A stretch of 64,000 nucleotides of DNA, taken from assembly GCA_937887565.1 (NCBI GenBank), contig CALABS010000012.1:57400-121399 (forward strand), in the 5' to 3' direction. The notes under the pieces were generated by a model. It was not told the DNA's origin. It searched no databases and worked only from the letters and a program-made list of their open reading frames with translations. This document shows positions 1 to 16,385 of the stretch, in pieces; the first letter of the stretch is position 1, and each line of letters starts with the position of its first letter. This DNA comes from an uncultured Rhodospirillaceae bacterium. Lineage in GTDB: Bacteria > Pseudomonadota > Alphaproteobacteria > Rhodospirillales > Magnetospirillaceae. The position numbers and the translations under genes are program-made.

Positions 1-1
1 C

Positions 2-637
2 GAGCGCTCGTGGCGCTGGAAGAATTTCTCCCCCGCCGAGATCGCCTGCCGAGGCAGCGGCTCCCTGCGGATCAACGAAGATGCGCTCGACAAGCTCCAG
101 GCGCTGCGCGATCGGCTTGGCAAGCCCCTCATCGTCCGTTCGGCCTACCGCAGTCCGGCGCACAACCGGGCCGTCGGCGGCGCGCCGCGCTCGAAGCACA
201 TGGACGGCACGGCCTTCGACATCGCCATGTCGAACCACGATCCGGTCGCCTTCGAGGCCGCTGCCCGAGCCGTCGGCTTTCTCGGCTTCGGCTACTATCC
301 CCGTTCGGGCTTCATGCACATCGACCTCGGTCCTGCTCGGCAATGGGGCGAGCGGTTCCCGGTGCAGGCGACGGCGTTCGCCGCTGAAACGGCGCCCGCG
401 CGGGCGGTTTTGGCCGACAGCCGCACGATGAAGGGCAGCGGCGCGGCAGGCGCGGCGACGCTCGGCGCCGCAGGCGTCGAGGTAGCGCAGAGCGTCCTGA
501 CGGAGACCCAGTCCACGATCCTGCCGCTCGTACCCTATCTCGACACCCTGCGCTGGGTGTTGATCGCCGTGGCGCTCGCGGGCGTTGCCGTGACGATCTA
601 CGCCCGCATCGACGACTGGAAGCGGGGGCGTCGATGA
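2..637 (+). CDS. Peptidase M15A-family cell-wall hydrolase (phage endolysin-like) with C-terminal TM anchor; 5' end lies outside the window
   Basis: The frame is open from the window edge: ...WKNFSPAEIACRGSGSLRINEDALDKLQALRDRLGKPLIVRSAYRSPAHNRAVGGAPRSKHMDGTAFDI... and GFMHIDLG are typical of M15A (DUF882/VanY-like) Zn peptidases. Hydrophobic C-terminus WVLIAVALAGVAVTIYA. The stop overlaps the next start as ATGA (634-637). Confidence 0.6.
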   Translation, partial: ERSWRWKNFSPAEIACRGSGSLRINEDALDKLQALRDRLGKPLIVRSAYRSPAHNRAVGGAPRSKHMDGTAFDIAMSNHDPVAFEAAARAVGFLGFGYYPRSGFMHIDLGPARQWGERFPVQATAFAAETAPARAVLADSRTMKGSGAAGAATLGAAGVEVAQSVLTETQSTILPLVPYLDTLRWVLIAVALAGVAVTIYARIDDWKRGRR

Positions 638-891
638 TCGCCGCTCTGTTCACCGGGATCGTCGCCAGCCCGTGGATGCGGGCGGCCTTGCGCTACAGCG
701 CCATCGCACTCGCCGTGCTTCTGTTCTTGCTGGCACTCCGGCGCTCCGGCGAGCGTGCTGGCCGCCTCGCCGAACGCCTCGAAACTTCGGAGAAGACCAA
801 TGACATCCATCGCCAGATGCTCGATGCGGCAGCTCGCCGTCCTCGTGATCGTAACGATCTCGCTGACCGGCTGCGCGACGGTCGCTTCTGA
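634..891 (+). CDS. Putative i-spanin (Rz-like), N-terminal TM helix plus charged helical tail
   Basis: 85 aa with an N-terminal hydrophobic segment (AIALAVLLFLLAL) and an Arg/Glu/Asp-rich C-terminus. It starts by ATGA overlap with the endolysin stop and contains the start of the following lipoprotein gene in another frame. Confidence 0.45.
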   Translation: MIAALFTGIVASPWMRAALRYSAIALAVLLFLLALRRSGERAGRLAERLETSEKTNDIHRQMLDAAARRPRDRNDLADRLRDGRF

Positions 892-1054
892 TCTTCGCGT
901 CACGACCATCTGCCCACCCGTTGTCGAGTATAGCCGCGAGTTCCAAGCGCGCGCAGCCGACGAGCTCGATCTGCTGCCGGAGGGGTCGGCTCTCGCCGAA
1001 ATGCTCGCCGACTATAGCGTTATGCGGGACCAAGCGCGCAGCTGCCGAGTGTGA
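800..1054 (+). CDS. Putative o-spanin (Rz1-like outer-membrane lipoprotein)
   Basis: ATG at 800 is preceded by GGAGA. Signal peptide plus lipobox: MTSIARCSMRQLAVLVIVTISLTG|C. It begins inside 634..891 in a different frame and extends past it, the overlapped spanin architecture. Confidence 0.5.
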   Translation: MTSIARCSMRQLAVLVIVTISLTGCATVASDLRVTTICPPVVEYSREFQARAADELDLLPEGSALAEMLADYSVMRDQARSCRV

Positions 1055-1056
1055 TT

Positions 1057-1818
1057 CTAGATTCTCCGAATGACCTTCGTCTCGATTAGAGCATGAAGAT
1101 GGGCACGCAGTCCTGCGGGGACGTGTCCACCGCTGATCACAACGCCGGCCTCCATATTCTTCTCCAACGCATGCCCAGTCAGGTTAGCGCTGGTCAAGAA
1201 GGCTGAATTGCCGTCGGCAACGGCCACTTTCGCGTGAACCCGTCCTTCGGCGAACGGTGCCGGCCGGTCGGTCCAGACATACAGCGCTGCCGAAGGAACA
1301 CACCGCCGCATTGTAGCAATAGGATCGACGGACAGGCTCCCGCCATGGCTCGTGGAGGTCTCCAACAGAATTCGGATGTCGATGCCGCGAGTGCTTGCAG
1401 CATTCAATGCATCGACCACCGAGGAGACGTCGTATGCAACAAAGCTAACGAGAAAGAGGTCACTTCGCGCGTGATCGATGAGATCCAGCAGCACCTGCTC
1501 CGTGCGGCGGGTGGCGACGAATGGTGTCGTCGGGCCCGTCCAAACTAGTTCGACGCTGTTCTCGCGCTGCGCCTGTTGGCGGGCGAAGGCTGCGCCGACC
1601 AAGATCCCGGCCAGAACATCGCCTGATATTTCCGTCTGTTTCCAAGCGGCGATCAAGCGATCAAGCGCTGCGCGAGCAGCCGGCGTGCTCACGAGCTGAT
1701 GCAGGCTTCCGTATCGTTCGACCGGCATCGAGCCGCGGACACGATCAGCGAGTGCTTCGATCCTCGACGGAGATAACATGGCCACGAGGTCTGTGGCCGC
1801 GACCAATATCGCTTCCAT
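1057..1818 (-). CDS. drmC: DISARM DrmC, phospholipase-D (HKD) family nuclease
   Basis: 253 aa. HKD motif RVHAKVAVADGNSAFLTSANLT near the C-terminus. The start shares one base with the drmB stop (TGATG at 1816-1820). Confidence 0.8.
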   Translation of the reverse strand: MEAILVAATDLVAMLSPSRIEALADRVRGSMPVERYGSLHQLVSTPAARAALDRLIAAWKQTEISGDVLAGILVGAAFARQQAQRENSVELVWTGPTTPFVATRRTEQVLLDLIDHARSDLFLVSFVAYDVSSVVDALNAASTRGIDIRILLETSTSHGGSLSVDPIATMRRCVPSAALYVWTDRPAPFAEGRVHAKVAVADGNSAFLTSANLTGHALEKNMEAGVVISGGHVPAGLRAHLHALIETKVIRRI

Positions 1819-3659
1819 CAGACGGTCTCGAAGAATGCCGCGTCGGGATTTTCAAGGGTGGGTACCACGAGGGAACGATCGAGATGACGATTTCCCCTCT
1901 CACAGGACGTTTCCGAGACGAATGAACAGGCGTGACATGCTGCGCCGTGAAGTGACTGGTCCTTACTCGGATCGTGTTCTGAACAGAGTGGATCGGATGC
2001 GCAAATATGGGCGCGATCCAGCGCTTGGCGCAGAAGTCGCCCAAGATTTTCAGGCTTTCCTAGCTCTACGAGACCTCCCAGAGTGCCATCGGAATCTGCT
2101 GCAGCTGTGTAGATGAGAAATCCGGCTTGATCCCTCCCGTCCTCGACGTCTGCATATATACGCTCCCGAATACTCGCGGCGTTGTAGCCGCACTCCAAGG
2201 CCAGTTCCCGGATCAGCATGTGCGCGAGCGTGTGTAGCATGACATAACGAACGCCCGGGTAACCTTGGCTTGGGTCCAGGTTCCTCTTTTGCCGCCATCC
2301 GCGATGGCCCTGCCGTAACCGAGAGTCGAGAGCCTTCACCGGATCCTTATCCGCCCAAGCCTTCAATGCATTTGCATCGAAGCGAACGAAAATTCCTTCA
2401 CCGTGAACTTGAGTGGCCGGCACCCAGTTCGGTGCTGCGCGTGCGAGCGGGGCCCGTGGGGCTGCCTCATCTCCCGTACCTTCGTCAGGAGACTCGACTC
2501 GTGTGAATCCAAGGAGGGCGTTCACCTCACGAAGCCGCTCCAGCAGCAGAACGCGTGTGATCGCCGCACCGAAGCCCGAGGGCACGCCCACCTTCTTGCT
2601 CATGAAATGCGGATAGTCGGTGGGTGGGTTCTCGGCCGTAAGCACATCCCATTCCGGCCCTTTGAGGTCGCTCTGTTCGACGCCCGGTCCGCCATTGCGA
2701 TGGGTTTCGATTGCGGACCAAATCTGCTCGTCAGTGAACTGCTCGATGCCAGGCAGCTGCGCCGTCTTCTTCAGGGTCTTGACGACGAACGCCACTTCGG
2801 CCGCCGAAGTGACGTCTTCAAAGAACGTCCAGCCATCCGCGACCAGTTGCGCCAGAGGGCTTCCCACCTGTGGGATCGCGAGAACCGAGAGTGTGACCGG
2901 GAACCAGCTATTGGTTGCGCCAAGGAGAATTGCGCGAGGTTCCTCGGTGCAATCGTCCTCAAAGCGATCCACGTGCGGATGTCGCCCTCGGCAGGCTGGA
3001 AGGTTGTCTCGACCTGCCTGACCAAAAGCCTGCGCCATGTTCTTCGATGCGCCGCAGCCATCGCATTTGACCCACAGGTTCTCGGTTTGAAGTGATGCGC
3101 CGCTCTCGAAGAACCTCAGCGTCGCACGACAGGTGCTAGATCCGCCGTGAACGAACCAGTGCCAGGCAAAGTCGTCGAGGTGGCCAGCCCGACACGCCAT
3201 GAGAAAGCGCGCCGGGACGGCATCGGCATCCCTGGCCCTTTGATCGTTATTCGATCCGCGACAGCCCTCATGGACGAAACGCGTCAGCTCGGGGCGATAC
3301 CTGTTTTCCTTCAGCTTGAACAAGCCGGCGTCATACGGCGATAGCAGGCCGCATTTGACGCAGCGCAGCCACCGCGGGAAGGGTTTGACGGGCACGCCGA
3401 TCAGCGCGGCGGCTGAAAATGGGTCTGTGATATCCCTTTCGCCCACGGGCGGCATACGCAATGATTCGACTTGGGGTCCGAGCACGCCCCGGACGTTGGC
3501 GAGCAACCGTGCCTCTTGGATCGGCTGACACCTGTCTTTCTCCCAGCGGTCGATCCCCATCGTGACCACCGACATGTTCGGGAGGTCGATCAAGGCTCCG
3601 GGGCCGTAGGTCCAAAGCAACTGGCTCGGTCGAATTTCTCCTACGGGTGTCCTGCTCAT
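1818..3659 (-). CDS. drmB: DISARM DrmB, DUF1998 (MrfA-like Zn-binding domain) protein
   Basis: C-terminal signature SLHGAACHACSFVSETSCERGNRHLDR is typical of DUF1998. Cys-rich internal clusters (CVKCG, CDGCG). Start chosen at M14 of the track ORF because it gives an ATGA overlap with the drmA stop (3656-3659); 3698 is the alternative. Confidence 0.8.
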   Translation of the reverse strand: MSRTPVGEIRPSQLLWTYGPGALIDLPNMSVVTMGIDRWEKDRCQPIQEARLLANVRGVLGPQVESLRMPPVGERDITDPFSAAALIGVPVKPFPRWLRCVKCGLLSPYDAGLFKLKENRYRPELTRFVHEGCRGSNNDQRARDADAVPARFLMACRAGHLDDFAWHWFVHGGSSTCRATLRFFESGASLQTENLWVKCDGCGASKNMAQAFGQAGRDNLPACRGRHPHVDRFEDDCTEEPRAILLGATNSWFPVTLSVLAIPQVGSPLAQLVADGWTFFEDVTSAAEVAFVVKTLKKTAQLPGIEQFTDEQIWSAIETHRNGGPGVEQSDLKGPEWDVLTAENPPTDYPHFMSKKVGVPSGFGAAITRVLLLERLREVNALLGFTRVESPDEGTGDEAAPRAPLARAAPNWVPATQVHGEGIFVRFDANALKAWADKDPVKALDSRLRQGHRGWRQKRNLDPSQGYPGVRYVMLHTLAHMLIRELALECGYNAASIRERIYADVEDGRDQAGFLIYTAAADSDGTLGGLVELGKPENLGRLLRQALDRAHICASDPLCSEHDPSKDQSLHGAACHACSFVSETSCERGNRHLDRSLVVPTLENPDAAFFETV

Positions 3660-6600
3660 TGCTGATCCTCCTGGGGCTGCGTCACCCGCGGTCTCCAAGT
3701 CGGATCACTCGTCGAACGGTCGTCCTCCATCACGAGCCTGACACCAGGCTCGACTTCGCGCATGGACATCGGGACCGTCCAATCGGTCCAAGGTTTGATG
3801 CCCGGCGCCGAAAGCAGCGGATAGGCGGTGGGGCCTGCGCCGTGCTTCTGGTAGACGAGCGTGCGGCCGCCGACGCCCGCTTCATTGGCCCAATCGTCAG
3901 CGCGGCTCTTCATCTCGGCTTCGGTCAGGGTCTTCTTCCCCGAATCTTCCGTGACTTCCCAGGTGCGAGCGGCGACGGCGCCTATCGTATCCAACATCTC
4001 TTTGCGGCTCGGACTGTTCATGGCGCCAGCGCCGTCGTTTGCGGCGAAGGGATCGTAGGTGTGACGCATGATGGAGAGCATCGCGCCGGTGAGCCCTCGG
4101 TCCAACGCCCGTGGCGAGAACGGGGTGACGGATTGAGCTTCGACGTGCTGATAGAAGGTCGCGTGGTAATGCTCGAAGGTCTCGTAATGCGACAAGTCCC
4201 GAGGCCGCGCCCAGGTCAGCACAGTGGCCACCAGTCCTGGCGGCGTTCGGCCCACACGGCTGGTCGCCTGGATGTACTCGGCCGTTCCCTTGGGTTGGCC
4301 GTTTACGACCATCACTCCGAGACGATTCACGTCAACACCGACCGACAGCATGTTCGTGGCGAGAACGGCATCGATCGGCCGGGCCTCCCCTGGTTTCCTG
4401 TTGGTCACCCATTTGCCTAGTGCCGGATCGAAGGTGCCATCGAAAGGAACCTCGAGCTGATCGAGGTATCTCGGGATGTCCTGACTGGAGACCCGCGATG
4501 TCAGTTCGCTGATTTCCTCGACCCGCCGCTGCGCGAGCCCCGGTCGGTCCACCAGGCTCATATCGACACGGAAGGAACGCGTTTGGACGTCGTCTTCGGC
4601 CAGACGCTTCATCCCTCCGAGTTCTCGTAGCGAGTTGAAGTAGCCGACGAGGGTCATATAGGGGTCGGCCACCGGGCCGAACCGATCGAACAGCGCCTGC
4701 GCTGCGGTGAGGAACGCCGTATAGGTCCTGATCAGCACCGCAGGGCGAGAGCTTCCGGGTGCGCAGATTCCGATGTACCGTCGGCCGGGTTTTTCGCGGA
4801 TGGGCCTCTGGACCGAGAAGAAATTGTCTTCGACGTCCAGGCCGGAAGGCGGAAACACGGAAATGCGGCGCATGAAGACATTGCGCACCTGGTCGTCGGC
4901 CCGCCGCACGGTCGCGGTAGAAGCCACGACCTTGGGACGAACCTTCTCGTCGCCCAGACCCCAGCTGCTCAGCTCGTCGACGGCCGTTTCGTAAAGACCC
5001 ACCATGGTGCCCAGCGGACCGCTGATGAGGTGGAACTCGTCCTGGATGATCAGGTCGGGTGGTCGGATTGCACGGACCGGCTTCACACTGGCGGCCGGAT
5101 ATGCCCCCCTCGTTCGGTGCCCCGTGCCGCAGTCGTGACTCGGCCAGAGCAAACCATGGCGTCCGCATTCCTGCTCGACGCGGCCGAAAAGGTTCCGAAC
5201 CTCGGGACGCCACGCCATCATCGCGAACTTGTCGACGGTCGCGATCATCATCGTCGGCGGGCGGTGATATATTTCCTCGTCGACGACTTTCACGGGAAGC
5301 CCCGGGTGAGGCTGCCCAGTGGATTTCGCCTTCGAGAAATCGCAGCCGCCCAGCTTGTCGCCGCAGTGGATCAGCGTTCGGCCGGCGATCCTGTCGACCT
5401 TGATGTCGCGACCACCGGAGATCTCCGAACCGCACCAAGGGCAGCTGGTCAGCTGCGCAGGCGATGCAATGCCCGCCTTGTTGCGATCGTTGTTTCGAAT
5501 GGCCTCGACAGCCTGGTGAGACGCTTCGGTCGTGCCCGGTGTCACGCGATTGCCGACCCAGAGACCGAGCGTGAAAGGTTCCTTGCCCCAGGTCTTGTCG
5601 TCTGCACGACGGATGACCTCCATCGCGCAGAGCAGCGTCGTCGCCCTCTGGAACTGCTGAAGAGTAAGCAGTCGCAGCGTGTAGCGCATGATGACGGCGA
5701 GACCGCGTGATGCGTCGAGGCCGCCGAGATCATTCTTCAGTCGGCGCATGGCCATGGCGAAGGCCGCCACACCGAGATAGGCCTCGGTTTTGCCACCACC
5801 CGTCGGGAACCAGAGGAGATCGGCGAACGCCTCGACCGGCTTCGTCCGGTCCGGGTGTGTCGGATCGGCGAGCGACGGGATCGACAGGAGCAGGAACGCA
5901 AGCTGGAACGGGCGCCACGATCTGTTCTTCGGCACGTCCAAAGTGGTCACGTCGACGGCTTCGTTCCGTCTGCGCTTCAGAGCGTAGATGCTCCGCACAC
6001 GCTGCATGGCCATGGACCGGTTGGCGAAGCGGAACGCCTCCAGCGCCTTCGGATCGGCGAAGAGCGTACCCATGCCCTCTCGGAGGCGGCGCAGGATCTC
6101 CTCGCAGCGCTGAATGACGTCCTTGCCCGGATCATCGAAGCCGGTGATCTCCGACCCCAGCCGGGCCTTCTGCTCACCGATCCAAACGGCATAGTCGTCG
6201 ACGAGGCACGAGAGAGCGTCGCGCAGCGCGTCTGGCGCCATCTCCGCCAGCCGCGTCATGTCGAGCCAGCCCTCGTCGACCATGCGCCGCATGGCAGGGC
6301 GGTCCCTGGGATCGAGGCCGGGCGTTTCGGTGACGGCGACTTCGTAGCGCGGGATGATCTCCGTTCTGACGCGATGAGCCTTCGTCGGCTCCTCGGGCGT
6401 CGTATCCGCGTGTACGGAGACCCCGTGTCCGACCGCGAACTCCAGCCTGTTGCGATAGATGAGCGCGAGACGGTCGCGTTCCGGGTCGTCGACGACCACT
6501 TCGTTGGAGGGGCGACGCCGAAAGACCGACTTGTCCCCGTGATCTTCGGGGGCCTCTACGGTGATCTCCGGCTGGAACAGCCAGGCGCGGTCCTTGTTGT

Positions 6601-7651
6601 CTTCGGGTTCCAACTGCCCGTTGACGAGGAACAACGTGACCAGGCACTCCCCCTTGTTGTTCGTCCGAACCGTCCCCTGCAGGCGGACATCCGGTTGATC
6701 GGGGTCGGGAGTGGACGGCTTGATCGGCCCATCGACGAGCGGAACCGTGACGACGCCACCGCATGGGATGCGCTGCCAGACCCTGACCTTCACCTCCTCC
6801 TGGTGACCGGTTTGGCGGTTCTTCCGTGTTTTGACGATGTCGTGTTCATCGTTCGGGACCCGCTCGTACCGTCCCCACCGTGCATCGACGGCCAGCTTCC
6901 CGACGTCGGGCGCCACGCAGAAGGTGAGGCCCATGCTGGAGGGAACCAGCGACTGGTTGTTCGTCGTGTCGATCTCGTCGAGCGCGTCGTCTTCCGGCTC
7001 CACCCGGCCCGATGCACTGGCGAACTCGGCGCCGGGCTCGTGGAGTGGCGCCGTCCGTTCATCCTCGAGGTCGCCAGCCTCCTCGGCTGCCGAGGCCGGT
7101 TCGATCCGTGCCGCCTGGTCGTCATCCGGTCGGCGCGGCGCCAGCTTGCCGACCAGGTAGCGGTCGCGGACGCTCATGTCCTTGATCAGCTCATGAGGGC
7201 CACCGGCGGGGCCGAGCAGATCGTCGCGTACGGCGAGTTCCAGGAGGTCGCGGGTGTAGACGACATCGTCGATCAGCGGCACTGCGCCGGGGGCAGAAAC
7301 GCCGAGCAGCGGCAGGATGCGGAGGAACTCGTCCCATGGGAGCCGCGCCACAGGGCCGGTCGGCGCGGTCAGGCCGAGGACGGCGAGCGGCATGGACGGT
7401 TCGACGGCCTGCCAATGGTCGAAATGGATCGTGGCGCTGTCGAGATCCGAACGAATGCGAAGGATCCGACCCACCTCGGTGACGTTGGCGCCATCGTCCA
7501 GAACGACAACCCATTGGCCTTCCTCGATCGCGCCGAGAGTGGTCGACCCCACGTCAATGCGTACAGAATAGCGCGGCGAGTTGGACGTCCTCTTGAGAAT
7601 CCAGGCGCTGACGGATGGTTCGGTGGTCGCGGTCAGATCGGCCATGGTCAA
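3656..7651 (-). CDS. drmA: DISARM DrmA, large superfamily-2 DExH helicase
   Basis: 1331 aa. Motif I WFPTGGGKTEAYLGV, motif II IIQDEFHLISGPLG, motif VI YIQATSRVGR. Sits directly upstream of the DUF1998 gene, the characteristic helicase+DUF1998 pairing. ATGA overlap with the drmMI stop. Confidence 0.85.
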   Translation of the reverse strand: MTMADLTATTEPSVSAWILKRTSNSPRYSVRIDVGSTTLGAIEEGQWVVVLDDGANVTEVGRILRIRSDLDSATIHFDHWQAVEPSMPLAVLGLTAPTGPVARLPWDEFLRILPLLGVSAPGAVPLIDDVVYTRDLLELAVRDDLLGPAGGPHELIKDMSVRDRYLVGKLAPRRPDDDQAARIEPASAAEEAGDLEDERTAPLHEPGAEFASASGRVEPEDDALDEIDTTNNQSLVPSSMGLTFCVAPDVGKLAVDARWGRYERVPNDEHDIVKTRKNRQTGHQEEVKVRVWQRIPCGGVVTVPLVDGPIKPSTPDPDQPDVRLQGTVRTNNKGECLVTLFLVNGQLEPEDNKDRAWLFQPEITVEAPEDHGDKSVFRRRPSNEVVVDDPERDRLALIYRNRLEFAVGHGVSVHADTTPEEPTKAHRVRTEIIPRYEVAVTETPGLDPRDRPAMRRMVDEGWLDMTRLAEMAPDALRDALSCLVDDYAVWIGEQKARLGSEITGFDDPGKDVIQRCEEILRRLREGMGTLFADPKALEAFRFANRSMAMQRVRSIYALKRRRNEAVDVTTLDVPKNRSWRPFQLAFLLLSIPSLADPTHPDRTKPVEAFADLLWFPTGGGKTEAYLGVAAFAMAMRRLKNDLGGLDASRGLAVIMRYTLRLLTLQQFQRATTLLCAMEVIRRADDKTWGKEPFTLGLWVGNRVTPGTTEASHQAVEAIRNNDRNKAGIASPAQLTSCPWCGSEISGGRDIKVDRIAGRTLIHCGDKLGGCDFSKAKSTGQPHPGLPVKVVDEEIYHRPPTMMIATVDKFAMMAWRPEVRNLFGRVEQECGRHGLLWPSHDCGTGHRTRGAYPAASVKPVRAIRPPDLIIQDEFHLISGPLGTMVGLYETAVDELSSWGLGDEKVRPKVVASTATVRRADDQVRNVFMRRISVFPPSGLDVEDNFFSVQRPIREKPGRRYIGICAPGSSRPAVLIRTYTAFLTAAQALFDRFGPVADPYMTLVGYFNSLRELGGMKRLAEDDVQTRSFRVDMSLVDRPGLAQRRVEEISELTSRVSSQDIPRYLDQLEVPFDGTFDPALGKWVTNRKPGEARPIDAVLATNMLSVGVDVNRLGVMVVNGQPKGTAEYIQATSRVGRTPPGLVATVLTWARPRDLSHYETFEHYHATFYQHVEAQSVTPFSPRALDRGLTGAMLSIMRHTYDPFAANDGAGAMNSPSRKEMLDTIGAVAARTWEVTEDSGKKTLTEAEMKSRADDWANEAGVGGRTLVYQKHGAGPTAYPLLSAPGIKPWTDWTVPMSMREVEPGVRLVMEDDRSTSDPTWRPRVTQPQEDQQ

Positions 7652-10600
7652 TCGCCCCCCTCAATGGTCATTGGAAGAATGTCGTCGAGGTCGAGCGTCG
7701 GCTCGGACGCAGAAGTAGCGCGAGATCTGCGTCCACGCGCCTTAGCTGGGCCTGCGGTCCCGCCATGTAGACCCTGGTCGACCTCTTCCTGGTAACGCAG
7801 ACGATTGAGTTCAGCTAACCGACGCAGCACTTCTAGACGCGCCGACTCTGAGATCGTGAAGCGGGTTCGGTCGTTCTCGGGAAGGTAGGAAACCTCATGG
7901 AAACCATGACCGAGATCCACATCATCCCATCCGTATGCTTGAACAACGGCAACGTCGATTTGATAGTGCAATTCTCGAAGCTCTTTGACCTCTTCGTCTT
8001 GGTCCTCCGCATCGTGCAGTCGGTTGAATACGCCCGTCAATCCAATCTGCCTTGACACACTTATTCTGCGACGGAGATCTATAATACTCCTCACAATTTC
8101 TCTTTGCGAAACGCCTAGAGCCGGAGCTGGAAATGTTTCGAATGAGTCGCCCGGGGTATATAGAAGCCGTGTCTCAAGGGTAGAAGCGTGCTTCCTAACC
8201 CATACTTCGTGGATTTGGCTGAGCAAAGCACCAAGTAGATTTAGATCCTCAGATGCAAATACAGTTATCCGGTCAGACCATATTATGTTCGATGGCACCA
8301 AAGATGGCGCCAGATACTTAGAGACTCGCGATAGGCATATAACATTCTGCAGGGCAGACGCATCTTCTCGCCACCCTTCGACATGCCTTTCGAAATGGTG
8401 ACCTTGCCCCACGGCGTGATAAAGGCCGTGGCGCTCATTCCAATGCAGCCACCACCTCTGCATGATATTCCGGTATGCTCGTTGCTTGCTCTGTTCGAGG
8501 CGTTTTGGGTACACCTCTCGCTCAACGTGCTTCCAAGGCAGCGTGTATGTTTTTGCGCGCTCTTCGGGCCAGTCCCAAAAGTTGACGACCCATCTGCTCG
8601 GACACTGCTCAGGGTCCGAATTCAAGTCCTCGCCGTTCATGTAAGGAAATAGAACTTCAGCGTTCTTCGGGTCAGCATCAAGCATGTCGGCCGCTTCCCT
8701 AGGGGTAAGCGTGAAGCCGATCGCGTTAAGCTTCGATCCCTCAAATGCAATTCCCTTATTGGCGCGAAGCTGCTTAGGGCTCCACTCTTCTTGATCCGAA
8801 AGGAACGCGGAAATGTACCTGACAGGCTGTCCAGAGAGTGTTCGCTGTCCCCGCCAATCCCCCTTGTACACATGTACCTGACTGGTAACTACGGCCGCGG
8901 ATCCAGGCCAGGGTTCGTTTGGATATGCAGAATGTACTGCAGACCCATTGTGCAATAGCCATTCTAGACCGCACTGGCGGGTATCTCCCTCGGAGATAGT
9001 ATTTGTTGCAAGTAGTCCGAAATTCCCCCCTTCTCTCAACAAAGAAAATGCGCGCCGGAAAAAGTGCGCCGAGAGGTCTACATTCCTGTTGGTTCCTGCG
9101 TGAATATTCACCAGCCATGTGTTGAATGCTGGGCCCAAGATCGTACTGATTCTCTTGCCGCCTAGAAACGGTGGGTTGCCGATAAACGCGTCAAAGCCCG
9201 CACTTTTGCGAAGAAAAACTTCTGGGAATTCTAGGGGCCAATGGAAAGGCCGTCGCACCGCTCCGTCGGGCGCATCTTTGGCCAAATCATTCTGAGCGTC
9301 ATGCAGGAGTCGTCTTTTTGCCGGTGTGTCGCCATCTGCGGCGGCGTCGGCGAAAGCCGCCAACGTCTCGATCCGTGCGGTGCGCTCTCCCGAACGCTGT
9401 TCTGCCAGAACGATGCCGATGAAAGCATCGGCGATGAGCGTCGGCAGCGCCAGTTCACCGCGCGATTGCGCATCAAGTGCTGCCATCGCCCCGACATCAT
9501 GAATATCGCGAATTGGGATCTCCCGCAGACGAGCGCGGAGTTCGAGCGCCTTGTCGACCGCTGATCGAATGGTCCGTCCAAACAATCGGAGCTGAGCCTT
9601 CCCCTTCGGATTCATGTCGAGCTCGACCAGCTGACCGAGATCGTGAATCCCGAGAAGGCTGTCACCACTACGCAGATTGTGGTCGAGGAAGCCGAAGGGC
9701 CGTCCCTTCGACATGGTGGTGAGCCAGAGCGACAGCTTGGCCAGCTCCACGGCCAGAGGGTTCTTGTCTACGCCGTAGAGGCATCGCTCCGCCACGAGGC
9801 GACGGGCGACGATCGCGCGTTCCTCCGCGTCCTGTGAGAGGGGATCGAAGCCCTCGGCGGTATCGCCTTCGACGATGCGCCCCTCGCTGTCGATCTGCTT
9901 GCCGGTCTTCTCCGTTGCCGACCAAGCCTCGACCAGACGATCCGAGAGCCATCGGCACGCCTGCACGAGGAAGGCTCCAGACCCCATGGCAGGATCGCAG
10001 ATCTTCAGGTCGAGCAGCTCCTCGGCGCTTTTCAGCTCCCAGTCCTCGGGCGCTTTGCCTTCGGCCGGGCCGCGGTAGGCGACTGGAGTCAGCGTTTCCG
10101 CGACGATCTTCTCCGTCAGGCTCTTCGGCGTGTAGTGCGTGCCGCTCTCGCGCCGGTCGGCGCCGAGCACGACGACAAAGGCGCCCTTGTGGTGGACGAG
10201 CGGATAGCCCCAGGGATCGGTCCGCAGGAGGGACGCGGAGGGCAGGATGCGATCGCGCAGACCGATATCGCCGCGGCAAACGGTGAGGAGGCGCGCGGCG
10301 AGACGATCGTCGGCTGGCCGCTCGAGGGCGTTACGGATGGCGGACTCTGAGCGCTCGCTCCGTTCCTTCAGCAGTTCAGCAACCCTCGCCGGACCATCCA
10401 GGCGCGCCGACTCCAACTCGCCAAGCGTCACGCGCGGGCTCTTCGCCTTCGCGCCGCTGTCGAGTTCCAGCGTGACATCGTCGACGCGCTTCACCGTGCG
10501 TTCGAGGAGGCCCTCGTAGACGTGCCCGATCTGCTCCACGTCGAGCGCGCGGTAGGACAGCGTGCGGCCTTCGAAAGTCTGGATCGCTTCCAACAACAGC

Positions 10601-11769
10601 AGAACGGTGCGGTCGTCGATCGGCAGCGGTTCGGCTGGATCGCTCCGCCAGCTCGTGCCCTTCTTTCGCCCTTCGAGGAACGGATAGCGATCGGGGTCGA
10701 ACAACGAACCACCGAGCGCTGGAAGGCGCAGCGTCGGATGATCGATACCACCATACACGCCACGAAACAGGGCGAGCAGCCGCGACCAGGCGGATCGGCG
10801 GCGCTCGAGGATCTCTTCGGAATCCGCACGCAACTGCATTCGCAGGCTGGAGATGGCGTAGAAGGAGTCGTAGCGGGGATCGCCGAGCAGTAGCAGGGCG
10901 CGTTCCTCGGCCGATAGTAGGAAGACGAGCCGCATCATGACCGTTAGACCGGCCTCGTAGAGTTCTCGCGGATCGACATCGCGCAGGAGCTCGCGATTGC
11001 GATCCTGGTCGGCGCGGTCGAGCGCCTGGACGAGCACTTCGACGGCGCGCCGGACCTGTTCTCCGAGCGCCTCGGTCACGTCGTCCTGGTGCTTCAAGGA
11101 CCTCTCATAGAGCGCCGGTAGCTTTCCTTCGTCGGGTCCGAAGAAGCGGCGGATGCCTAAAAGGCTGACGAAGGCGCGCAGCGTTTCTGGTTCCTGGCCC
11201 CAGAGCCGCGCATACCAGCTCGCGAAGCCTGCCACGACGCCGACGGGCGCGTGGACGAGCATCCAGCGCTCGCCATTGGTGACGATGCCGGTGGGGCATC
11301 CTGTCGACCTGAGCAGAGCGACCATCCGGTCGGCCGGGGTGATCGCGAGGCCATCGAAACGGCGCGTCGCATCCAGATCGGTGTCGGGCTCGTAGATGTG
11401 GATGAGCAGAAGCGGTTCGTCGGAGTTCGTTGGATTTACGACCGCCAGATCGGGCGCGACCGTGACTCCGTGTTCGGGCATCGAGACAGTCAGCTTCTCA
11501 GGCAGTCTCGCGCCCCCGCGCAGCACCGTCTCATCCATTTCCAGCGCGGTGACCAGCACGTCGTCGATCCAGGCCGCGTGCAGCGCTGGAAGGTCGAGGT
11601 CGTCCATGTCGACGGCATCGCGCCATTCCTCATAGGTCCGACGAAGCCGCTGAGGCCGCCCGGAAGGCAGGGCTTCAAGGCCTTGCGGGAAGACTTCCCG
11701 CAGCACGGGCACCGCCAGAAAGGGCCCAGAGACTTCGATGAGGTTCAGCCACTCGTGATCGTTGCTCAT
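7648..11769 (-). CDS. drmMI: DISARM DrmMI, large N6-adenine DNA methyltransferase (Eco57I/type IIG-like)
   Basis: 1373 aa. SAM motif I ICDPAMGSGAFLVQA and catalytic motif IV FDAFIGNPPFLGG. ATGA overlap with the drmD stop (11766-11769). Confidence 0.8.
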   Translation of the reverse strand: MSNDHEWLNLIEVSGPFLAVPVLREVFPQGLEALPSGRPQRLRRTYEEWRDAVDMDDLDLPALHAAWIDDVLVTALEMDETVLRGGARLPEKLTVSMPEHGVTVAPDLAVVNPTNSDEPLLLIHIYEPDTDLDATRRFDGLAITPADRMVALLRSTGCPTGIVTNGERWMLVHAPVGVVAGFASWYARLWGQEPETLRAFVSLLGIRRFFGPDEGKLPALYERSLKHQDDVTEALGEQVRRAVEVLVQALDRADQDRNRELLRDVDPRELYEAGLTVMMRLVFLLSAEERALLLLGDPRYDSFYAISSLRMQLRADSEEILERRRSAWSRLLALFRGVYGGIDHPTLRLPALGGSLFDPDRYPFLEGRKKGTSWRSDPAEPLPIDDRTVLLLLEAIQTFEGRTLSYRALDVEQIGHVYEGLLERTVKRVDDVTLELDSGAKAKSPRVTLGELESARLDGPARVAELLKERSERSESAIRNALERPADDRLAARLLTVCRGDIGLRDRILPSASLLRTDPWGYPLVHHKGAFVVVLGADRRESGTHYTPKSLTEKIVAETLTPVAYRGPAEGKAPEDWELKSAEELLDLKICDPAMGSGAFLVQACRWLSDRLVEAWSATEKTGKQIDSEGRIVEGDTAEGFDPLSQDAEERAIVARRLVAERCLYGVDKNPLAVELAKLSLWLTTMSKGRPFGFLDHNLRSGDSLLGIHDLGQLVELDMNPKGKAQLRLFGRTIRSAVDKALELRARLREIPIRDIHDVGAMAALDAQSRGELALPTLIADAFIGIVLAEQRSGERTARIETLAAFADAAADGDTPAKRRLLHDAQNDLAKDAPDGAVRRPFHWPLEFPEVFLRKSAGFDAFIGNPPFLGGKRISTILGPAFNTWLVNIHAGTNRNVDLSAHFFRRAFSLLREGGNFGLLATNTISEGDTRQCGLEWLLHNGSAVHSAYPNEPWPGSAAVVTSQVHVYKGDWRGQRTLSGQPVRYISAFLSDQEEWSPKQLRANKGIAFEGSKLNAIGFTLTPREAADMLDADPKNAEVLFPYMNGEDLNSDPEQCPSRWVVNFWDWPEERAKTYTLPWKHVEREVYPKRLEQSKQRAYRNIMQRWWLHWNERHGLYHAVGQGHHFERHVEGWREDASALQNVICLSRVSKYLAPSLVPSNIIWSDRITVFASEDLNLLGALLSQIHEVWVRKHASTLETRLLYTPGDSFETFPAPALGVSQREIVRSIIDLRRRISVSRQIGLTGVFNRLHDAEDQDEEVKELRELHYQIDVAVVQAYGWDDVDLGHGFHEVSYLPENDRTRFTISESARLEVLRRLAELNRLRYQEEVDQGLHGGTAGPAKARGRRSRATSASEPTLDLDDILPMTIEGGD

Positions 11770-14700
11770 CCGCGCTTCTCCGTCGCGAGGGAGTTCGGAA
11801 CCAGCAGCACCACGGCCACGGGGAAGGTATGCTCGACGGCATTGGAGTGCCGTTCCTCGATCGCGCGTAGCTCTTGCTCGCGCTCCTTCGGGATCCGGGC
11901 CAGGCGTGCTTCGAGGGCCGCTCGGTCACGCTTGAGCTGAGTGCGTTCGTCCTCGGAGAAAAGAGAGAGCTGCACGGGTTGCTGTTCCGCCGCGATCTCG
12001 GTCTTCAGCGCTCGTTCGAGATCGTCCAGGACTTGGCGGATGTCCTCGGCCTCCTTGCGCTTCCGGGTCTCGATCGTGTTCACGAGGAAGCGTAGCCGGT
12101 CTTTCGAGCGTGCCTCGACGGCTGCCAGAACGGAATCACGCTGTTTGTCGAAGCGCGTCCTCAAGGCCTCAAACGTCGCATCCGGCAGGGCCGCGGGGTG
12201 CGACTCCTCCAGCCATCGTCGGACCTCCGTGACCCGTTCCTCCCGCCGGAAACCGGCATCGCGCAGATAGCCGCCAGCCTCCGTGAGCTCCTCGTGCAGA
12301 CGATGATGGTTCCCGCCGGTCACGACGAGCCGCGACATCACCACCACGGCCGGTCCCTCGATCCGCCCATCCGGAAGCGAGCGCACGGTCACGCGGTGAA
12401 GCTTCTTCACGTCGTCACGGGCCCAGATCTCCGCGCGCAGGAGCCGCAGACTCATCTGGACGAGCCGGTGGTTCAGGTGGACGAGGACCACGTCGTCACG
12501 GCCCTTGGCGACCTCGTGGTCGAAGGTGATCGGGCGAACCTTCTGCGTGTAGGGGTGTTCTAGACCCTCGAGGCATCGGGACCAGGAACCCGAGAGCGGC
12601 GGCATTCGGAAAACCGTGCCATCTGGTGCACCGGCCAGAGAAACGGGCTCCAAGTCGGGTTTGTCCGCAAGACGCAACGCCGTGCGTACCGCCCGCTCGA
12701 TGTGGTCGGGCACGAGGCTCTGTTCGTGCCGGGTCTCGTTCAGCCGCTCATGGAGTTTGGCCACACGTTCGCGAAGGTCGCGCTCCGCCTTCACGAAGCG
12801 GCGGGATTTCTCCATCCGGGCTTCGGCTTGTCTCGTGTCGAGATCGCGGCGGCGCCCCTCGAGGAGGTCTGGCAGTTGAGGCGCGATGACCGGGTTCACG
12901 CTCCCCATGTCGGCGCGCATCGCATCCAGTTTGCGAAGCGCACGGAGGATATCGTCACCGTGGCCTCCTTCAGGATCCACCGGATGCCAAATGACGACCT
13001 CGCTCGCGCGTTGACCATGACGGTCGATGCGCCCGTTCCGCTGTTCCATCACATTCGGGTTGTACGGAATTTCGAGATGGATCATCAGATGACAGTGGTT
13101 CTGGAGATCGATGCCCTCGGAGGCGGCATCGGTCGCCAGCAGTATCCTCACCGGGGATTCCGAAGGGTTGGCCTGGAACGCGGCTTTCACGCCCTCGCGT
13201 TCTTTCGGGTCCATGCCACCATAGATGAGAGCCAATCGCTCGCCCCCGAAGCCGTGGGATGCGAGGATCTCCTGCATCCATTGCTGAGTGGCGCGATACT
13301 CGGTGAACAGGATCACCCGCTCGTTCGTCCACCTGTCACCGTCCTTCAGGTGACTGGCCAGCCAATCCAGCACGGCGGTGGCCTTGGCGTCGGTTCGACG
13401 AGCCGCCTGCTGGGCCCAGGACCGCAACCGGTCGAGCATCCGGCGTTCTTCGTCGGTCGGTGGCCGGACGTGCTTGCCCGCTTCCTCGATCGCTTCAGCC
13501 TCGGCGGCATCCCGCTGGGCGTCGTCTGCGTAGTCTTCCTCGGTCTTCGCTATCGCCCGCCGAAGGATGCGGTCATCGAATTTCTTCTGGCTGCGATCGC
13601 TAGCCGCCCGACCTTCGATCGTCGCGATATGCCGCTCCAGTGTCGCTGCAAAGGCTGCAGGTGACGATGACAGGCGCTTGCGCAGCAACTGGTGCACGAA
13701 GTGATCGACGGCCCGCTCTCCATCAGCACCGCCTTCGCGGCTCTTGATGTATGCTTCCAGCTGCCGCCGGGCATCCCTCTCGTCTTCGCTATACTCCACC
13801 GGCAGCGCTTCGAGCCGTCGCTCGGGGTAAATTCGCTTGCCATTCGCATCGACCAGATCGCTCTTCAGCCGACGGACCATCACCCGGGCGAGTTGGGGAT
13901 CACTTGGGAGGACGTTTCTCGCGAACCGCTGATCATCAAGGAGTTCGAGGAGTGCGGTGAAGGATTCGGTGTAACCGTCGTGCGGCGTGGCTGTGAGAAA
14001 CAGTTTGTGCTGGAAGTGTGGCGCGGCCAGACGAACCAGACGGGTCCTGAGGCTTTCGACAGCGTAGCGGCCGACGGTCGGCGCGACGTTGTGAGCCTCG
14101 TCGATGATCAGCAGGTCGAACTTCCTGGGATGGCTGACGTGCGGGGGCAATGCGTCCCGTAGAAGACGCAAGCCTTCACCCTGCTTGGCCCAGTCCATCG
14201 ACGTGATGAGACGGGGAAAAGACGTCCAGGGATTCGCGTGCAGGCCTCGCTCGCGGCGCAGACGCTTGACGTATTCCGTATCGACGATCCGGAACTCCAG
14301 CCCGAACTTCTCCTGCATCTCGACGCGCCATTTTTCCTGCAAAGAGGCAGGGCAAAGCACGAGAACGGTACGGGCACGGTGCCGCAACAGCATCTCTTGA
14401 ACGACGAGTCCCGCCTCGATGGTCTTCCCGAGGCCGACGTCGTCGGCGATCAGCAGATTGGTGCGCGCCATGTCGATCGCGCGCACGAGCGGATCCAGCT
14501 GGTAATCCTCGATGCTGACGCCACTGCGGAATGGCGCCTGCAGATAGCCGCGATCCGCGTTCGTCGCTGCGCCCCAAACCACCGCATCCAAGAAGGCTTG
14601 AAGCGTGGATGGGTCATCCAGCCCGGTCATGCGCGGTAGTCCGGCCCGCTCGATCACATGCGCTCCGGGCTCCAGCTCCCAGAGCACTTCGATCTCTTCA

Positions 14701-14885
14701 CCCAGCGCATCCTCGTCGATTGAGGCCAGCCGAACGAGATGCCGCTTAGGAAGTCCAGGGGCAACCGAACCGCCTTCGACCTCGGAGACGATCCATTGTC
14801 GGCGCCGAGCCTCGACCAGCTGGCCCGGCTCGGGCGCAGTGGCGTGAGCCACCTCGGCCACTATTTCATCTGCGGTCATCGGCAT
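11766..14885 (-). CDS. drmD: DISARM DrmD, SNF2-family helicase/ATPase
   Basis: 1039 aa. Motif I LIADDVGLGKTIEAG, motif II LLIIDEAHNV, motif V LLATDAASEGIDLQ, motif VI YNPNVMEQRNGRIDRHGQ. Confidence 0.85.
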   Translation of the reverse strand: MPMTADEIVAEVAHATAPEPGQLVEARRRQWIVSEVEGGSVAPGLPKRHLVRLASIDEDALGEEIEVLWELEPGAHVIERAGLPRMTGLDDPSTLQAFLDAVVWGAATNADRGYLQAPFRSGVSIEDYQLDPLVRAIDMARTNLLIADDVGLGKTIEAGLVVQEMLLRHRARTVLVLCPASLQEKWRVEMQEKFGLEFRIVDTEYVKRLRRERGLHANPWTSFPRLITSMDWAKQGEGLRLLRDALPPHVSHPRKFDLLIIDEAHNVAPTVGRYAVESLRTRLVRLAAPHFQHKLFLTATPHDGYTESFTALLELLDDQRFARNVLPSDPQLARVMVRRLKSDLVDANGKRIYPERRLEALPVEYSEDERDARRQLEAYIKSREGGADGERAVDHFVHQLLRKRLSSSPAAFAATLERHIATIEGRAASDRSQKKFDDRILRRAIAKTEEDYADDAQRDAAEAEAIEEAGKHVRPPTDEERRMLDRLRSWAQQAARRTDAKATAVLDWLASHLKDGDRWTNERVILFTEYRATQQWMQEILASHGFGGERLALIYGGMDPKEREGVKAAFQANPSESPVRILLATDAASEGIDLQNHCHLMIHLEIPYNPNVMEQRNGRIDRHGQRASEVVIWHPVDPEGGHGDDILRALRKLDAMRADMGSVNPVIAPQLPDLLEGRRRDLDTRQAEARMEKSRRFVKAERDLRERVAKLHERLNETRHEQSLVPDHIERAVRTALRLADKPDLEPVSLAGAPDGTVFRMPPLSGSWSRCLEGLEHPYTQKVRPITFDHEVAKGRDDVVLVHLNHRLVQMSLRLLRAEIWARDDVKKLHRVTVRSLPDGRIEGPAVVVMSRLVVTGGNHHRLHEELTEAGGYLRDAGFRREERVTEVRRWLEESHPAALPDATFEALRTRFDKQRDSVLAAVEARSKDRLRFLVNTIETRKRKEAEDIRQVLDDLERALKTEIAAEQQPVQLSLFSEDERTQLKRDRAALEARLARIPKEREQELRAIEERHSNAVEHTFPVAVVLLVPNSLATEKRG

Positions 14886-15316
14886 AGATGGGCCCCGTTC
14901 CTTCTGCGAGCGTCGACAAATTCGGCGATGCGGTTTGCGGCTTGGATGGCGTCTTCGTGTTCCCAGATCCGGACCGTCTCCCAGCCGAGAGCAGCCAGCC
15001 GCTGATCAGTATCGGCATCCCTAAATCGATTGGTTTCGATCTTCTCCCGCCAGAAATCGGCGTTGCTCTTCGGCCAGGAAGCGTGCTCGGGGCAGCCGTG
15101 CCAAAAGCATCCGTCGACGAACACGGCCAATCTCGCGCTAGGGAAAACGATATCGGCAACGCGCCTGGGCTTAGTCAGGAGCGGAACGTGGAGGCGATAA
15201 CGCAGCCCCTTGGCATGCAGAGCCTTGCGGAGATTTATCTCCGCACGCGTGCCCTTCTGTCGCACGCGAGCCATGCGACGACTGGCGTCATGCGACGAGG
15301 GACTTACGCGCGTCAT
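14876..15316 (-). CDS. vsr: Very-short-patch repair endonuclease
   Basis: 146 aa with SRRMARVRQKGTRAEINLRKALHAKGLRYRLH and FVDGCFWHGCPEH, hallmark Vsr motifs. Overlaps the 3' end of dcm (15288-15316) and the 5' end of drmD (14876-14885). Confidence 0.85.
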   Translation of the reverse strand: MTRVSPSSHDASRRMARVRQKGTRAEINLRKALHAKGLRYRLHVPLLTKPRRVADIVFPSARLAVFVDGCFWHGCPEHASWPKSNADFWREKIETNRFRDADTDQRLAALGWETVRIWEHEDAIQAANRIAEFVDARRRNGAHLCR

Positions 15317-16385
15317 CCGCCACGGCTCCCTTCTTCTTTCTCTTCGCCTTCTGGACCTCGATCCCCAGATGGACAGCGATGCTCCGGCCGATCACCTCGC
15401 CCAGAGTGACCGGAACGGCGTTTCCAATCATCCGACCCAAGGCCTTGAAATGAACGGGGGCCCCGTCGGGTATGAAGGAATAGGACTTGGGGAAGCCTTG
15501 AAGAATTGCGCCTTCTCGCAGAGAGATGGCTCGGTCCTGCTCGGGGTGTCCAAACCGACCGTTCCCGAATCCGTAGAACTGGGTGGTCAAGGTCGGAGCG
15601 GGTTCATCCCATACCATCCGGCCATAGACGCCCGGATAGGTACGCCCCGTCTCACGCCGGTGGCAGTCGGCAATGAGATGTTTTGGCCAGTCTCGCCATG
15701 TTCCACCCGGTCGAGAGGCGCGAATTCTTTGAAGATTTAGGTCAGAGAGCTTTGATGCGGCATGCAGCACATCCTTGGGATGGGCTTCTCCCTGAGCGAT
15801 CGGCGCAAGGACGCCGATCGCCTCGCGCACGGTCTTCGGGCGACTGTGTGTCGGGGCGAACAGCTCAATTGGCCCGAGTCTAGAGGCCAATAGCACCATG
15901 CGCCGCCGGTTCTGCGGCAATCCGTAAAGGGAGCAATCGACTATCGCTTGGTGGACGTGGTACCCCGATTTCTGGAGAGTCTCGACGAAGTCATCGAACA
16001 CAGTGTGTTTGGCCACCGAAGGCACATTCTCCATAGTGACCAGGTCGGGACGCGTAGCTTTGATCAGCCGCCCGAACTGATAGAGAAGACCCCATCGAGG
16101 GCTTCCAACGACATCGTAGCGCTGGGCGTAGGTGGAAAATGGCTGGCAGGGGGCGCACCCGGCCAGCACCCGGATTTCGGCGTCGCCGAACAACTCGTTG
16201 AGGCGCTTGGGAGCAAGGCGACCCACGTCTTCCTTGATGAAGCGCGCTGCGTTATTGGCTTCAAATGGGTGGCGGCAGGCTTCATCGACGTCAATGCCCG
16301 CGACGACCCGAACGCCCTCCGAGATCAGGCCATGCGTAAGCCCGCCGGCTCCACAGAACAAGTCGACGCACGCGACATCAGCCAT
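15288..16385 (-). CDS. dcm: DNA cytosine-5 methyltransferase
   Basis: C5-MTase motifs I DLFCGAGG, IV GCAPCQPFS, VI MENVPS, VIII QNRRR, X GNAVP. Start taken at MADVACVDLF (ATG 16385); the track start is 16406. Confidence 0.85.
   Translation of the reverse strand: MADVACVDLFCGAGGLTHGLISEGVRVVAGIDVDEACRHPFEANNAARFIKEDVGRLAPKRLNELFGDAEIRVLAGCAPCQPFSTYAQRYDVVGSPRWGLLYQFGRLIKATRPDLVTMENVPSVAKHTVFDDFVETLQKSGYHVHQAIVDCSLYGLPQNRRRMVLLASRLGPIELFAPTHSRPKTVREAIGVLAPIAQGEAHPKDVLHAASKLSDLNLQRIRASRPGGTWRDWPKHLIADCHRRETGRTYPGVYGRMVWDEPAPTLTTQFYGFGNGRFGHPEQDRAISLREGAILQGFPKSYSFIPDGAPVHFKALGRMIGNAVPVTLGEVIGRSIAVHLGIEVQKAKRKKKGAVADDARKSLVA

Follow-up and report, generated by a model that had tools for sequence, protein, structure and literature searches.

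The defense hotspots of P2-like phages and P4-like satellites hold short systems, with neither BREX (bacteriophage exclusion) nor type I restriction-modification (RM) among them (Rousset et al., 2022, PMC9122126), and large size has been suggested as the reason why systems such as DISARM (defense island system associated with restriction-modification) are absent from prophages (Tesson et al., 2022, PMC9090908). We analyzed a stretch of 64,000 nucleotides (nt) from an uncultured Rhodospirillaceae bacterium (genome G000), hereafter the window, in which phage lysis genes and a DISARM operon converge. It covers positions 57400–121399 of contig CALABS010000012.1 (C12), of which the 57 kb upstream were also readable; coordinates without a prefix are those of the window. 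Our results make it very likely that the lysis cassette at 1–1054 is the end of the conserved core of a temperate phage of ~60 kb, integrated at a tRNA-Ser(GGA) gene, and that DISARM is cargo inside the attachment (att) sites of this phage.

The locus resembles the P2 and P4 hotspots in being a fixed slot between conserved flanks of a temperate phage, filled with different anti-phage systems in each copy, which would be expressed from the prophage. It differs from them in size and content, measuring 9–17 kb and holding DISARM, BREX, Hma, type I and type III RM and copper resistance, and in position, between the o-spanin gene and attP of an alphaproteobacterial siphophage type with a serine integrase. 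The operon itself shares with class 1 DISARM (Ofir et al., 2018; Serratia sp. SCBI with drmMII) the order drmD-drmMI-drmA-drmB-drmC and an added C5 methylase, with full-length PADLOC matches, but lies inside a prophage and has genes for Vsr and a MAD1-like helix-turn-helix (HTH) protein attached. In searches of open-access papers, we came across no account of a prophage with DISARM inside it, nor of this slot. Hotspots of this general kind are known; what is new is a phage-borne one that is unusually large, stands at the o-spanin/attP end and comes with a tRNA-Ser-targeting serine integrase. Surveys have suggested that DISARM, BREX and Dnd are too large for prophages (PMC9090908, PMC9122126), whereas here a common phage family appears to carry such systems inside its att sites; very large defense systems do sit on phage genomes. 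If confirmed, this would make temperate phages vehicles for large methylation-based immunity, and would provide a natural 10–17-kb cargo site with a tRNA-Ser-targeting serine integrase for Alphaproteobacteria.

Large serine integrases are familiar from phages phiC31, Bxb1, A118 and TP901-1. As in those phages, a Resolvase+Recombinase protein of ~450–500 amino acids (aa) is the sole recombinase, and its gene adjoins one prophage end. The differences concern the target, here the extreme 3′ end of tRNA-Ser genes (GGA, CGA and GCT isoacceptors), and an attP with an 8–17-nt mimic of the tRNA end, a habit typical of tyrosine integrases. A survey of Paracoccus reported serine-recombinase prophages whose integration sites were not identifiable, described no cargo slot, and included one predicted prophage with a copper ATPase and a multicopper oxidase (Decewicz et al., 2019, PMC6536676). 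Its serine-recombinase prophages are likewise alphaproteobacterial and of siphophage type, and the prophages of that survey may be relatives of the phage family described here.

Attachment sites and mobility of the element

The tRNA-Ser(GGA) gene lies at C12:15548–15638, and its last 12 nt (C12:15627–15638) form the attL core. The closest relative, G002 of the same genus, has the same tRNA-Ser, and its sequence departs from that of our genome right after ...CTCCCTCCGCCATT (GCCATT). We therefore placed attL at the tRNA 3′ end. A short-word blast search with the empty-site sequence of G002 located attR on the plus strand at 17886–17920, consisting of a P arm, CAGAGAGTTGGTGGTCGGTTCCA, and a core, CTCCCTCCGCCA (17909–17920), which matches the last 12 nt of tRNA-Ser(GGA) exactly. 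This core was assigned to the gap of 213 bp that separates the last island gene from a chromosomal mutase gene. The sequence to the right of it (17921–18133) is the native chromosomal flank of tRNA-Ser(GGA), the B′ side, as it aligns with the post-tRNA-Ser sequence of the empty sites in G002, G009 and G012. Since the attR core lies beyond the DISARM, Dcm/Vsr, HTH and DUF5677 genes and is followed by native flank, all of these genes fall inside one element, C12:15639–75319, in which phage and DISARM block together measure 59,681 bp (59.7 kb). The predicted attP reads …GAGTCCTTTCCCTCCGCCA|TTATCTTG….

Other approaches to the right end were less productive. Exact repeats of at least 12–13 nt between the left and right zones gave chance-like matches only, and a 26-mer fuzzy search for the tRNA end found nothing. 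Synteny with relatives failed to set the right flank; the genus shows no conservation of the post-tRNA-Ser region or of window 21700–29400, and contigs are broken at the tRNA. The sole long downstream match between our genome and G269 (Caenispirillum salinarum, same order) was rejected as an att site, being made up of what are presumably cobalamin riboswitches.

Further members of the family show the same arrangement. A tRNA-Ser gene (CGA, GGA or GCT) stood beside the integrase in all nine examined, and a tRNA-end repeat was found past the cargo in G157 (17 nt), G421 (14 nt) and G414 (12 nt), as well as in G269, G406, G407 and G411; repeats of 8–9 nt in coding-like sequence of G409, G412 and G417 were not accepted as attR. 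Ahead of the repeat runs a conserved phage P arm, ...GAGCGAGTTTGTCGAAGAGTCCTTTCCCTCCGCCA, of which at least 110 nt are common to G269, with type I RM cargo, and to G406 and G408, with DISARM cargo. Homologues of this arm precede the host flanks in G269, G406, G407, G408, G411 and G414, our genome and G407 sharing a variant form, CAGAGAGTT.G.GG...TCCCTCCGCCA. Unlike the P arm, the sequence after the attR repeat is host-specific. One IMG/VR contig (3300007289_000250; 58,736 bp, classed as having direct terminal repeats) ends in a P arm joined directly to TTATCTTGTAGCGAAC..., which is the attL-side arm and also the contig start, with an overlap of 22 nt. The joining of P arm to P′ arm identifies this contig as the circular attP form, and its 13 kb of cargo encode a type I restriction enzyme.

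The junction between phage and DISARM also recurs in Amphiplicatus metriothermophilus (Parvularculales), Blastomonas (Sphingomonas) ursincola (Sphingomonadales) and one metagenome-assembled genome (MAG). In these three genomes, nucleotide identity of 94–96% is continuous over the tail genes, the lysis genes, drmC, drmB and drmA and resumes over the Dcm, Vsr and HTH genes, and the drmC stop lies 18 nt past the end of the homology described below. The three sister elements sit beside different tRNA-Ser genes; the same junction at such identity in different sites thus indicates that phage and DISARM moved as one unit.

These results bear on two possibilities that the original prediction, made from the window alone, had left side by side. 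The first, that the defense island is cargo at the end of a prophage, is supported by the position of attR beyond DISARM, the other cargo that sister slots hold ahead of a conserved P arm and the circular relative that includes its cargo. A search of 1057–17921 (PADLOC, Pfam and a contig-wide integrase search) found no recombinase or integrase in the island. The second, insertion exactly at a prophage boundary, finds no support: the o-spanin/drmC junction (1035–1060) has no tRNA-end core, and attR lies at 17909–17920. The att direct repeats that had been proposed around a region including DISARM exist as the 12-nt tRNA-end repeat, and the horizontal transfer that had been envisaged is borne out by the shared junction in genomes of other orders.

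Upstream of the lysis cassette, where holin, tail and terminase genes had been suggested as the ones to look for, the contig holds a full complement of phage genes. Directly upstream, all on the plus strand, are genes for the large terminase, portal, capsid-protease fusion, tape measure, tail proteins and tail fiber, together with a transmembrane (TM) holin candidate, so the lysis genes do stand next to phage structural genes. Further left lie genes for an AAA_24 protein, a helicase, a PD-(D/E)XK nuclease, a primase-type AAA_25 protein and a methylase, with an ImmA/HTH immunity pair on the minus strand to the left of the structural genes. The large serine recombinase (498 aa; C12:17315–18811) occupies the left end of the element and is the only recombinase on the contig; a tyrosine integrase was considered because of the tRNA target and ruled out, as C12 holds none. 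All structural, lysis and integration open reading frames (ORFs) are intact, and the packaging, head, tail, lysis, integrase and immunity modules are complete. The prophage is thus of a complete temperate siphophage type.

The variable cargo slot

The phage family is very widespread, the endolysin having 304 matches in IMG/VR and more than 526 in genomes. The 80 best genome matches, at 83–99% aa identity, come from Rhodospirillales, Hyphomicrobiales, Sphingomonadales, Rhodobacterales and Parvularculales. Endolysins 94–99% identical occur across orders, in a Parvibaculaceae MAG, Chelativorans, Chelatococcus, Brucella pseudintermedia and Blastomonas, which is unusually broad for one phage lineage. 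The prophage recurs in further genomes of the order, among them G269, which matches C12:15610–58438 at 91–97% identity.

In essentially all related loci, homology to our genome halts at ~1033–1039, just past the codon for the conserved C-terminal Cys of the o-spanin candidate. The end lies ~15 nt before the o-spanin stop in ~150 related loci, with blastn end points at C12:58434–58438 in five genomes, at query positions 1064–1077 in 69 of the 80 genome loci, and likewise in the IMG/VR loci. We place the boundary between the conserved phage core and the cargo slot, the left edge of the latter, at 1035–1056. The C-terminal tails of the o-spanin are variable among relatives, and its last two codons and the 2-nt spacer (TT, 1055–1056) form the cargo side of this edge. 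That drmC (stop at 1057–1059) ends only 2 nt from the o-spanin stop follows from a slot edge placed directly after the Cys codon.

Past this edge the DNA differs from phage to phage, with 71% of residues coded on the opposite strand and 54 distinct three-gene signatures among 67 genome loci. PADLOC and Pfam searches identified type I RM in G269, L056, L061 and L124; BREX in G381 (PglZ-BrxHI-PglXI-BrxC) and L087 (BrxL); Hma in L060; type III RM in L145; PDC-S68 in L062; and GajB-like helicases and a CARF-kinase protein in G178 and L121. At least 12 loci hold a copper-resistance island with a CopA-type ATPase and a multicopper oxidase. The slot thus has the makeup of a phage-borne defense hotspot, with the o-spanin as left flank, the P arm as right flank, variable content and many PADLOC systems.

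Copper resistance, which is not defense, is also the most frequent cargo. Its island (DUF411, CopA-type ATPase, permease, DUF302 and multicopper oxidase) occurs in many genera, in L190, L195–L197, L200, L201, L203, L205 and L209–L212, as viewed in the 10 kb after the o-spanin. A tblastx comparison of high-GC cargo with the element yielded compositional noise and was disregarded. A second, left-hand cargo slot lies between attL and the integrase operon (L004:15969–16898, on C12). In our genome it encodes a 309-aa protein homologous to the Lit phage-exclusion protease (NCBIfam match at E = 4.5e-27, below cut-off); in G269 it is filled by 7.8 kb of other DNA.

The position of the right-hand slot bears on how proviruses are delimited. 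In 45 of the 80 viral records that make up IMG/VR loci L056–L135, the sequence stops within the lysis cassette or no more than 45 nt after it. Such predicted boundaries leave out the cargo slot, and are the kind of boundary call that would hide cargo. Taken together, these observations lead us, with some reservation, to favor a broader reading: a widespread phage family, 94–96% identical in nucleotide sequence across alphaproteobacterial orders, would package ~60 kb including a dedicated terminal cargo bay of 10–17 kb between o-spanin and attP, ferrying the largest known defense systems (DISARM, BREX, Hma, type I and type III RM) and metal resistance from host to host; its serine integrase would target tRNA-Ser 3′ ends; and since the lysis cassette is where predictors usually cut its proviruses, misplaced boundaries would account in part for the published "absence" of DISARM and BREX from prophages. 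The practical warning is that provirus boundaries based on gene content undercount phage-borne defense.

Lysis genes and element size

The endolysin is an M15 zinc peptidase with a C-terminal TM segment, encoded on the plus strand at 1–637 (ORF 2–637, frame 2). Its ATG lies at C12:57362, 38 nt left of the window, which holds residues 14–224 of the full 224 aa. It matches Pfam Peptidase_M15_3 (PF08291; E = 9e-28) and, over its full length, phrog_17373 ("peptidase"; E = 5e-112). Its single hydrophobic segment is C-terminal (residues ~198–217), with a Kyte–Doolittle score over 19 residues (KD19) of 2.06 at 198–216. Residues ~140–224 comprise a Gly/Ala-rich segment and the C-terminal TM anchor, and the protein has no N-terminal signal-anchor-release domain. 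The endolysin stop (TGA, 635–637) overlaps the start (ATG, 634–636) of the i-spanin candidate in an ATGA. This 85-aa protein (634–891, plus strand) has one hydrophobic segment near its N-terminus (residues 15–36; KD19 of 2.23 at 17–35) and a charged helical tail, and matches phrog_27122 (E = 3e-31).

The o-spanin candidate, an 84-aa lipoprotein (800–1054, plus strand), begins out of frame within the gene at 634–891 and ends beyond it, with GGAG 8 nt before its ATG at 800 and a TGA at 1052–1054. Residues 1–25, MTSIARCSMRQLAVLVIVTISLTG|C, form a signal peptide with a predicted lipobox L-T-G-C (Cys25, 872–874); the protein also has a CPPVVEY motif and the conserved C-terminal Cys, and matches phrog_26778 (E = 1.5e-22). 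At least 100 of 115 related loci retain both the lipobox ORF and the motif, which indicates that the overlapped pair is a real, selected feature and not a product of chance. The TM-anchored M15-type peptidase, the ATGA overlap, the internal lipoprotein gene and the terminator-free junction with the drmC stop on the opposite strand had all been noted originally, and domain searches, hydropathy and coordinates bear out each of them.

Overlapped two-component spanins such as P2 LysB/LysC are reportedly a class of their own, in a classification due to Summer and colleagues in 2007 and Kongari and colleagues in 2018. As in LysB/LysC, the pair comes directly after the endolysin, the TM segment of the i-spanin is N-terminal, and the o-spanin gene opens within the i-spanin gene, in the +1 frame, and runs on past its end. 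Unlike LysB/LysC, both proteins are short, the o-spanin is proline-poor and probably partly helical, and there is no significant match to LysC or Rz1. From this gene architecture, the 85-aa and 84-aa proteins are probably an overlapped two-component spanin, and a DUF6127 protein of 96 aa, encoded upstream of the endolysin and with a TM segment at its C-terminus, is a holin candidate.

The small proteins could also have other functions, the 85-aa TM protein as a holin or antiholin and the lipoprotein as a Cor-like superinfection-exclusion protein or another envelope protein. Curated spanin families (Rz, Rz1, LysB, LysC) gave only a Pfam LysC match at E = 0.097 (13 bits, against a cut-off of 27), NCBIfam gave no spanin match to either protein, the matched PHROG families are unannotated, and there is a weak phrog match to Cor (E = 0.048). 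The i-spanin candidate is moreover short, with ~48 periplasmic residues, and the mature lipoprotein has only ~7% proline. Such functions would leave unexplained a pair placed directly after the endolysin, coupled to it by ATGA and overlapping out of frame, with an N-terminal TM protein followed by a lipobox protein whose C-terminal Cys is conserved, a layout that at least 100 of 115 loci keep. With the DUF6127 protein available as holin, we regard them as unlikely.

Two further observations concern the lysis genes. The stretch that separates the DUF6127 gene from the endolysin start contains a strong terminator-like hairpin, CCCGCCCTCGTCGAGGAGCGGGC, with TTTTTT after it (L002:19917–19948), and the place of this hairpin just ahead of the lysis genes suggests that these need antitermination or a separate promoter. 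In G269 (L041/L040), a 2.5-kb insertion with a transposase-like ORF, which we take from its sequence to be IS66-like, disrupts the i-spanin gene at the equivalent of 669–675.

Ten elements with mapped ends measure 56.3–64.1 kb in total, our element 59.7 kb and the circular contig 58.7 kb. The span from tRNA to o-spanin ranges from 41.5 to 54.5 kb and the right-hand cargo from 8.8 to 16.9 kb. Core length and right-cargo length are inversely related (r ~ −0.8), with a standard deviation of ~2.5 kb for the total, in a hand calculation on elements that are not phylogenetically independent. This is suggestive of a packaging limit near 60 kb. The capsid-protease class of the element also matches records of Stx2a-converting phages. 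The genomes of Stx2a-converting phages are ~60 kb.

Several points weigh against DISARM being cargo of an active ~60-kb phage. The reading presumes that this copy can be induced and that 60 kb fit into its virions; judged by capsid protein (43% identity), the nearest phages in culture have genomes of 37–42 kb. The size correlation takes in related elements without phylogenetic correction. Some members are decayed, G269 with an insertion sequence (IS) in its i-spanin gene and G410 without part of the core. The P arm of our genome is a diverged variant and the exact repeat is only 12 nt long, and serine integrases are not usually tied to tRNA targets or to repeats so long. Spanin and holin roles, too, come from architecture, with unannotated PHROG families and LysC below cut-off.

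Some of these points would fit a prophage, and perhaps all cargo-rich copies, that is domesticated or defective and too large to package, with DISARM retained by the host and spread by transduction, recombination or gene transfer agents. The 37–42 kb packaged by the cultured phages with the closest capsid protein, the decayed copies (the IS66-like insertion in the G269 i-spanin gene and the truncated core of G410) and a CheckV completeness of only 68% for the circular contig are what one would expect under it. We nevertheless consider it quite improbable, given that the structural, lysis and integration ORFs are intact in our genome, that the ten elements cluster at 56–64 kb despite 9–17 kb of right-hand cargo, that a circular 58.7-kb genome exists, that 94–96% identity across three orders implies that the unit moved recently and as a whole, and that Stx2a-converting phages share the capsid-protease class. 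A shared-hotspot accident, in which an integrase-less DISARM island stood beside the tRNA-Ser and a phage later integrated between tRNA and island, would suit the variable tRNA-Ser loci of relatives, where several contigs break right after the tRNA, and the somewhat different third-position GC content (GC3) of phage and DISARM genes, but is largely refuted and very improbable given that 1035–1060 holds no tRNA-end core or other att remnant and 1057–17921 no recombinase, that the identical junction occurs in three genomes of other orders beside different tRNA-Ser genes, that a phage-type P arm follows the cargo, and that the circular relative includes its own.

DISARM operon, proposed mechanism and flanking features

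The cargo amounts to 16.9 kb (class 1 DISARM, Dcm/DrmMII, Vsr, MAD1-like HTH and DUF5677), with every gene on the minus strand, so that drmC and the lysis genes are convergent. The last gene of the DISARM operon is drmC (1057–1818), for a nuclease of the phospholipase D family (PLDc_2; PADLOC DrmC PDLC02585, E = 2e-110, residues 1–252 of 253). It is preceded by drmB (1818–3698; DUF1998/MZB domain, PF09369; PADLOC DrmB, E = 2e-80), with a likely start at the ATG at 3659, and by the helicase gene drmA (3656–7651; PADLOC DrmA, 1520 bits). Then come drmMI (7648–11769), for a type IIG-like N6-adenine methyltransferase with Eco57I/MmeI domains (PADLOC DrmMI, 1842 bits), and drmD (11766–14885), for an SNF2 helicase (PADLOC DrmD PDLC02621, 1463 bits). 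The contiguous and overlapping drmA, drmB and drmC, in one operon with drmD and drmMI, constitute the class 1 DISARM gene set of PADLOC.

At the upstream end of the operon are vsr (14876–15316), for a very-short-patch repair endonuclease (NCBIfam TIGR00632, E = 2e-33, above cut-off), a gene for a DrmMII-like Dcm C5-cytosine methyltransferase (15288–16406; PADLOC DrmMII, E = 2e-92; PF00145, E = 9e-54) and, at the head, one for a MAD1-like HTH protein of the excisionase family (16378–16689; NCBIfam NF047737, 80.6 bits; TIGR01764). The stretch of 96% identity common to the other DISARM-bearing phages (query positions 1–2743) extends ~50 nt beyond this HTH gene, to ~16742. The last cargo gene (16890–17921), of the DUF5677 family (PF18928, E = 6e-6, just below cut-off), has no counterpart in the three sister DISARM phages. 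Within drmMI, the 3′ part at 7939–9151 is not alignable between phage-DISARM copies that are otherwise 94–96% identical, and identity is 83–87% thereafter. The alignment suggests that a target-recognition region has been swapped here, in which case the methylation specificity would differ.

No terminator-like hairpin was found at the o-spanin/drmC junction, where the fold is unexceptional (z = 0.72), and sigma-70 promoter and terminator scans there gave nothing useful. We propose the following course of events. In the lysogen, a promoter of its own, located upstream of the HTH gene, would drive the cargo operon antisense to the late operon, and DISARM would methylate host and prophage DNA and restrict unmethylated incoming phages. 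A superinfection-exclusion role for the prophage-borne system, as originally suggested, would fit this scheme. After induction, late transcription would run antisense into drmC and the genes upstream of it, there being no terminator at the 2-nt junction; more speculatively, this could damp DISARM while unmethylated phage DNA is made. The serine recombinase would excise the whole 59.7 kb between attL and attR, and the resulting circle of ~60 kb would be packaged whole. In lysis, the DUF6127 protein would act as holin, the membrane-anchored M15 peptidase would cut peptidoglycan, and the 85-aa and 84-aa pair would serve as spanin. In spreading across alphaproteobacterial orders, the phage would then take the defense system with it.

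The surroundings of the element have features of their own. A motif, ~CGAA(A/C)..(G)TTCTCC, is common to the P′ arms and to the native host sequence that follows tRNA-Ser; it lies ~10–20 nt past the CCA end and could be an integrase half-site or a scar of earlier integrations. Just left of the tRNA-Ser, an intergenic repeat of ~100 nt (L004:14965–15066) recurs on C10, C11, C24, C42 and C58 and in related genomes, in the manner of repetitive extragenic palindromic (REP-like) elements. On the right, the methylmalonyl-CoA mutase gene adjoining attR (18134–21748) is a diverged second copy, no more than 79% identical to relatives, and the mutase copy on C36 is about equally similar to it (78%). The region at 21700–29400 is absent from relatives of the same genus. 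It includes two copies, ~87% identical, of what is presumably a cobalamin riboswitch (22433–22590 and 25315–25465), and similar copies occur on C74, C44 and C77.

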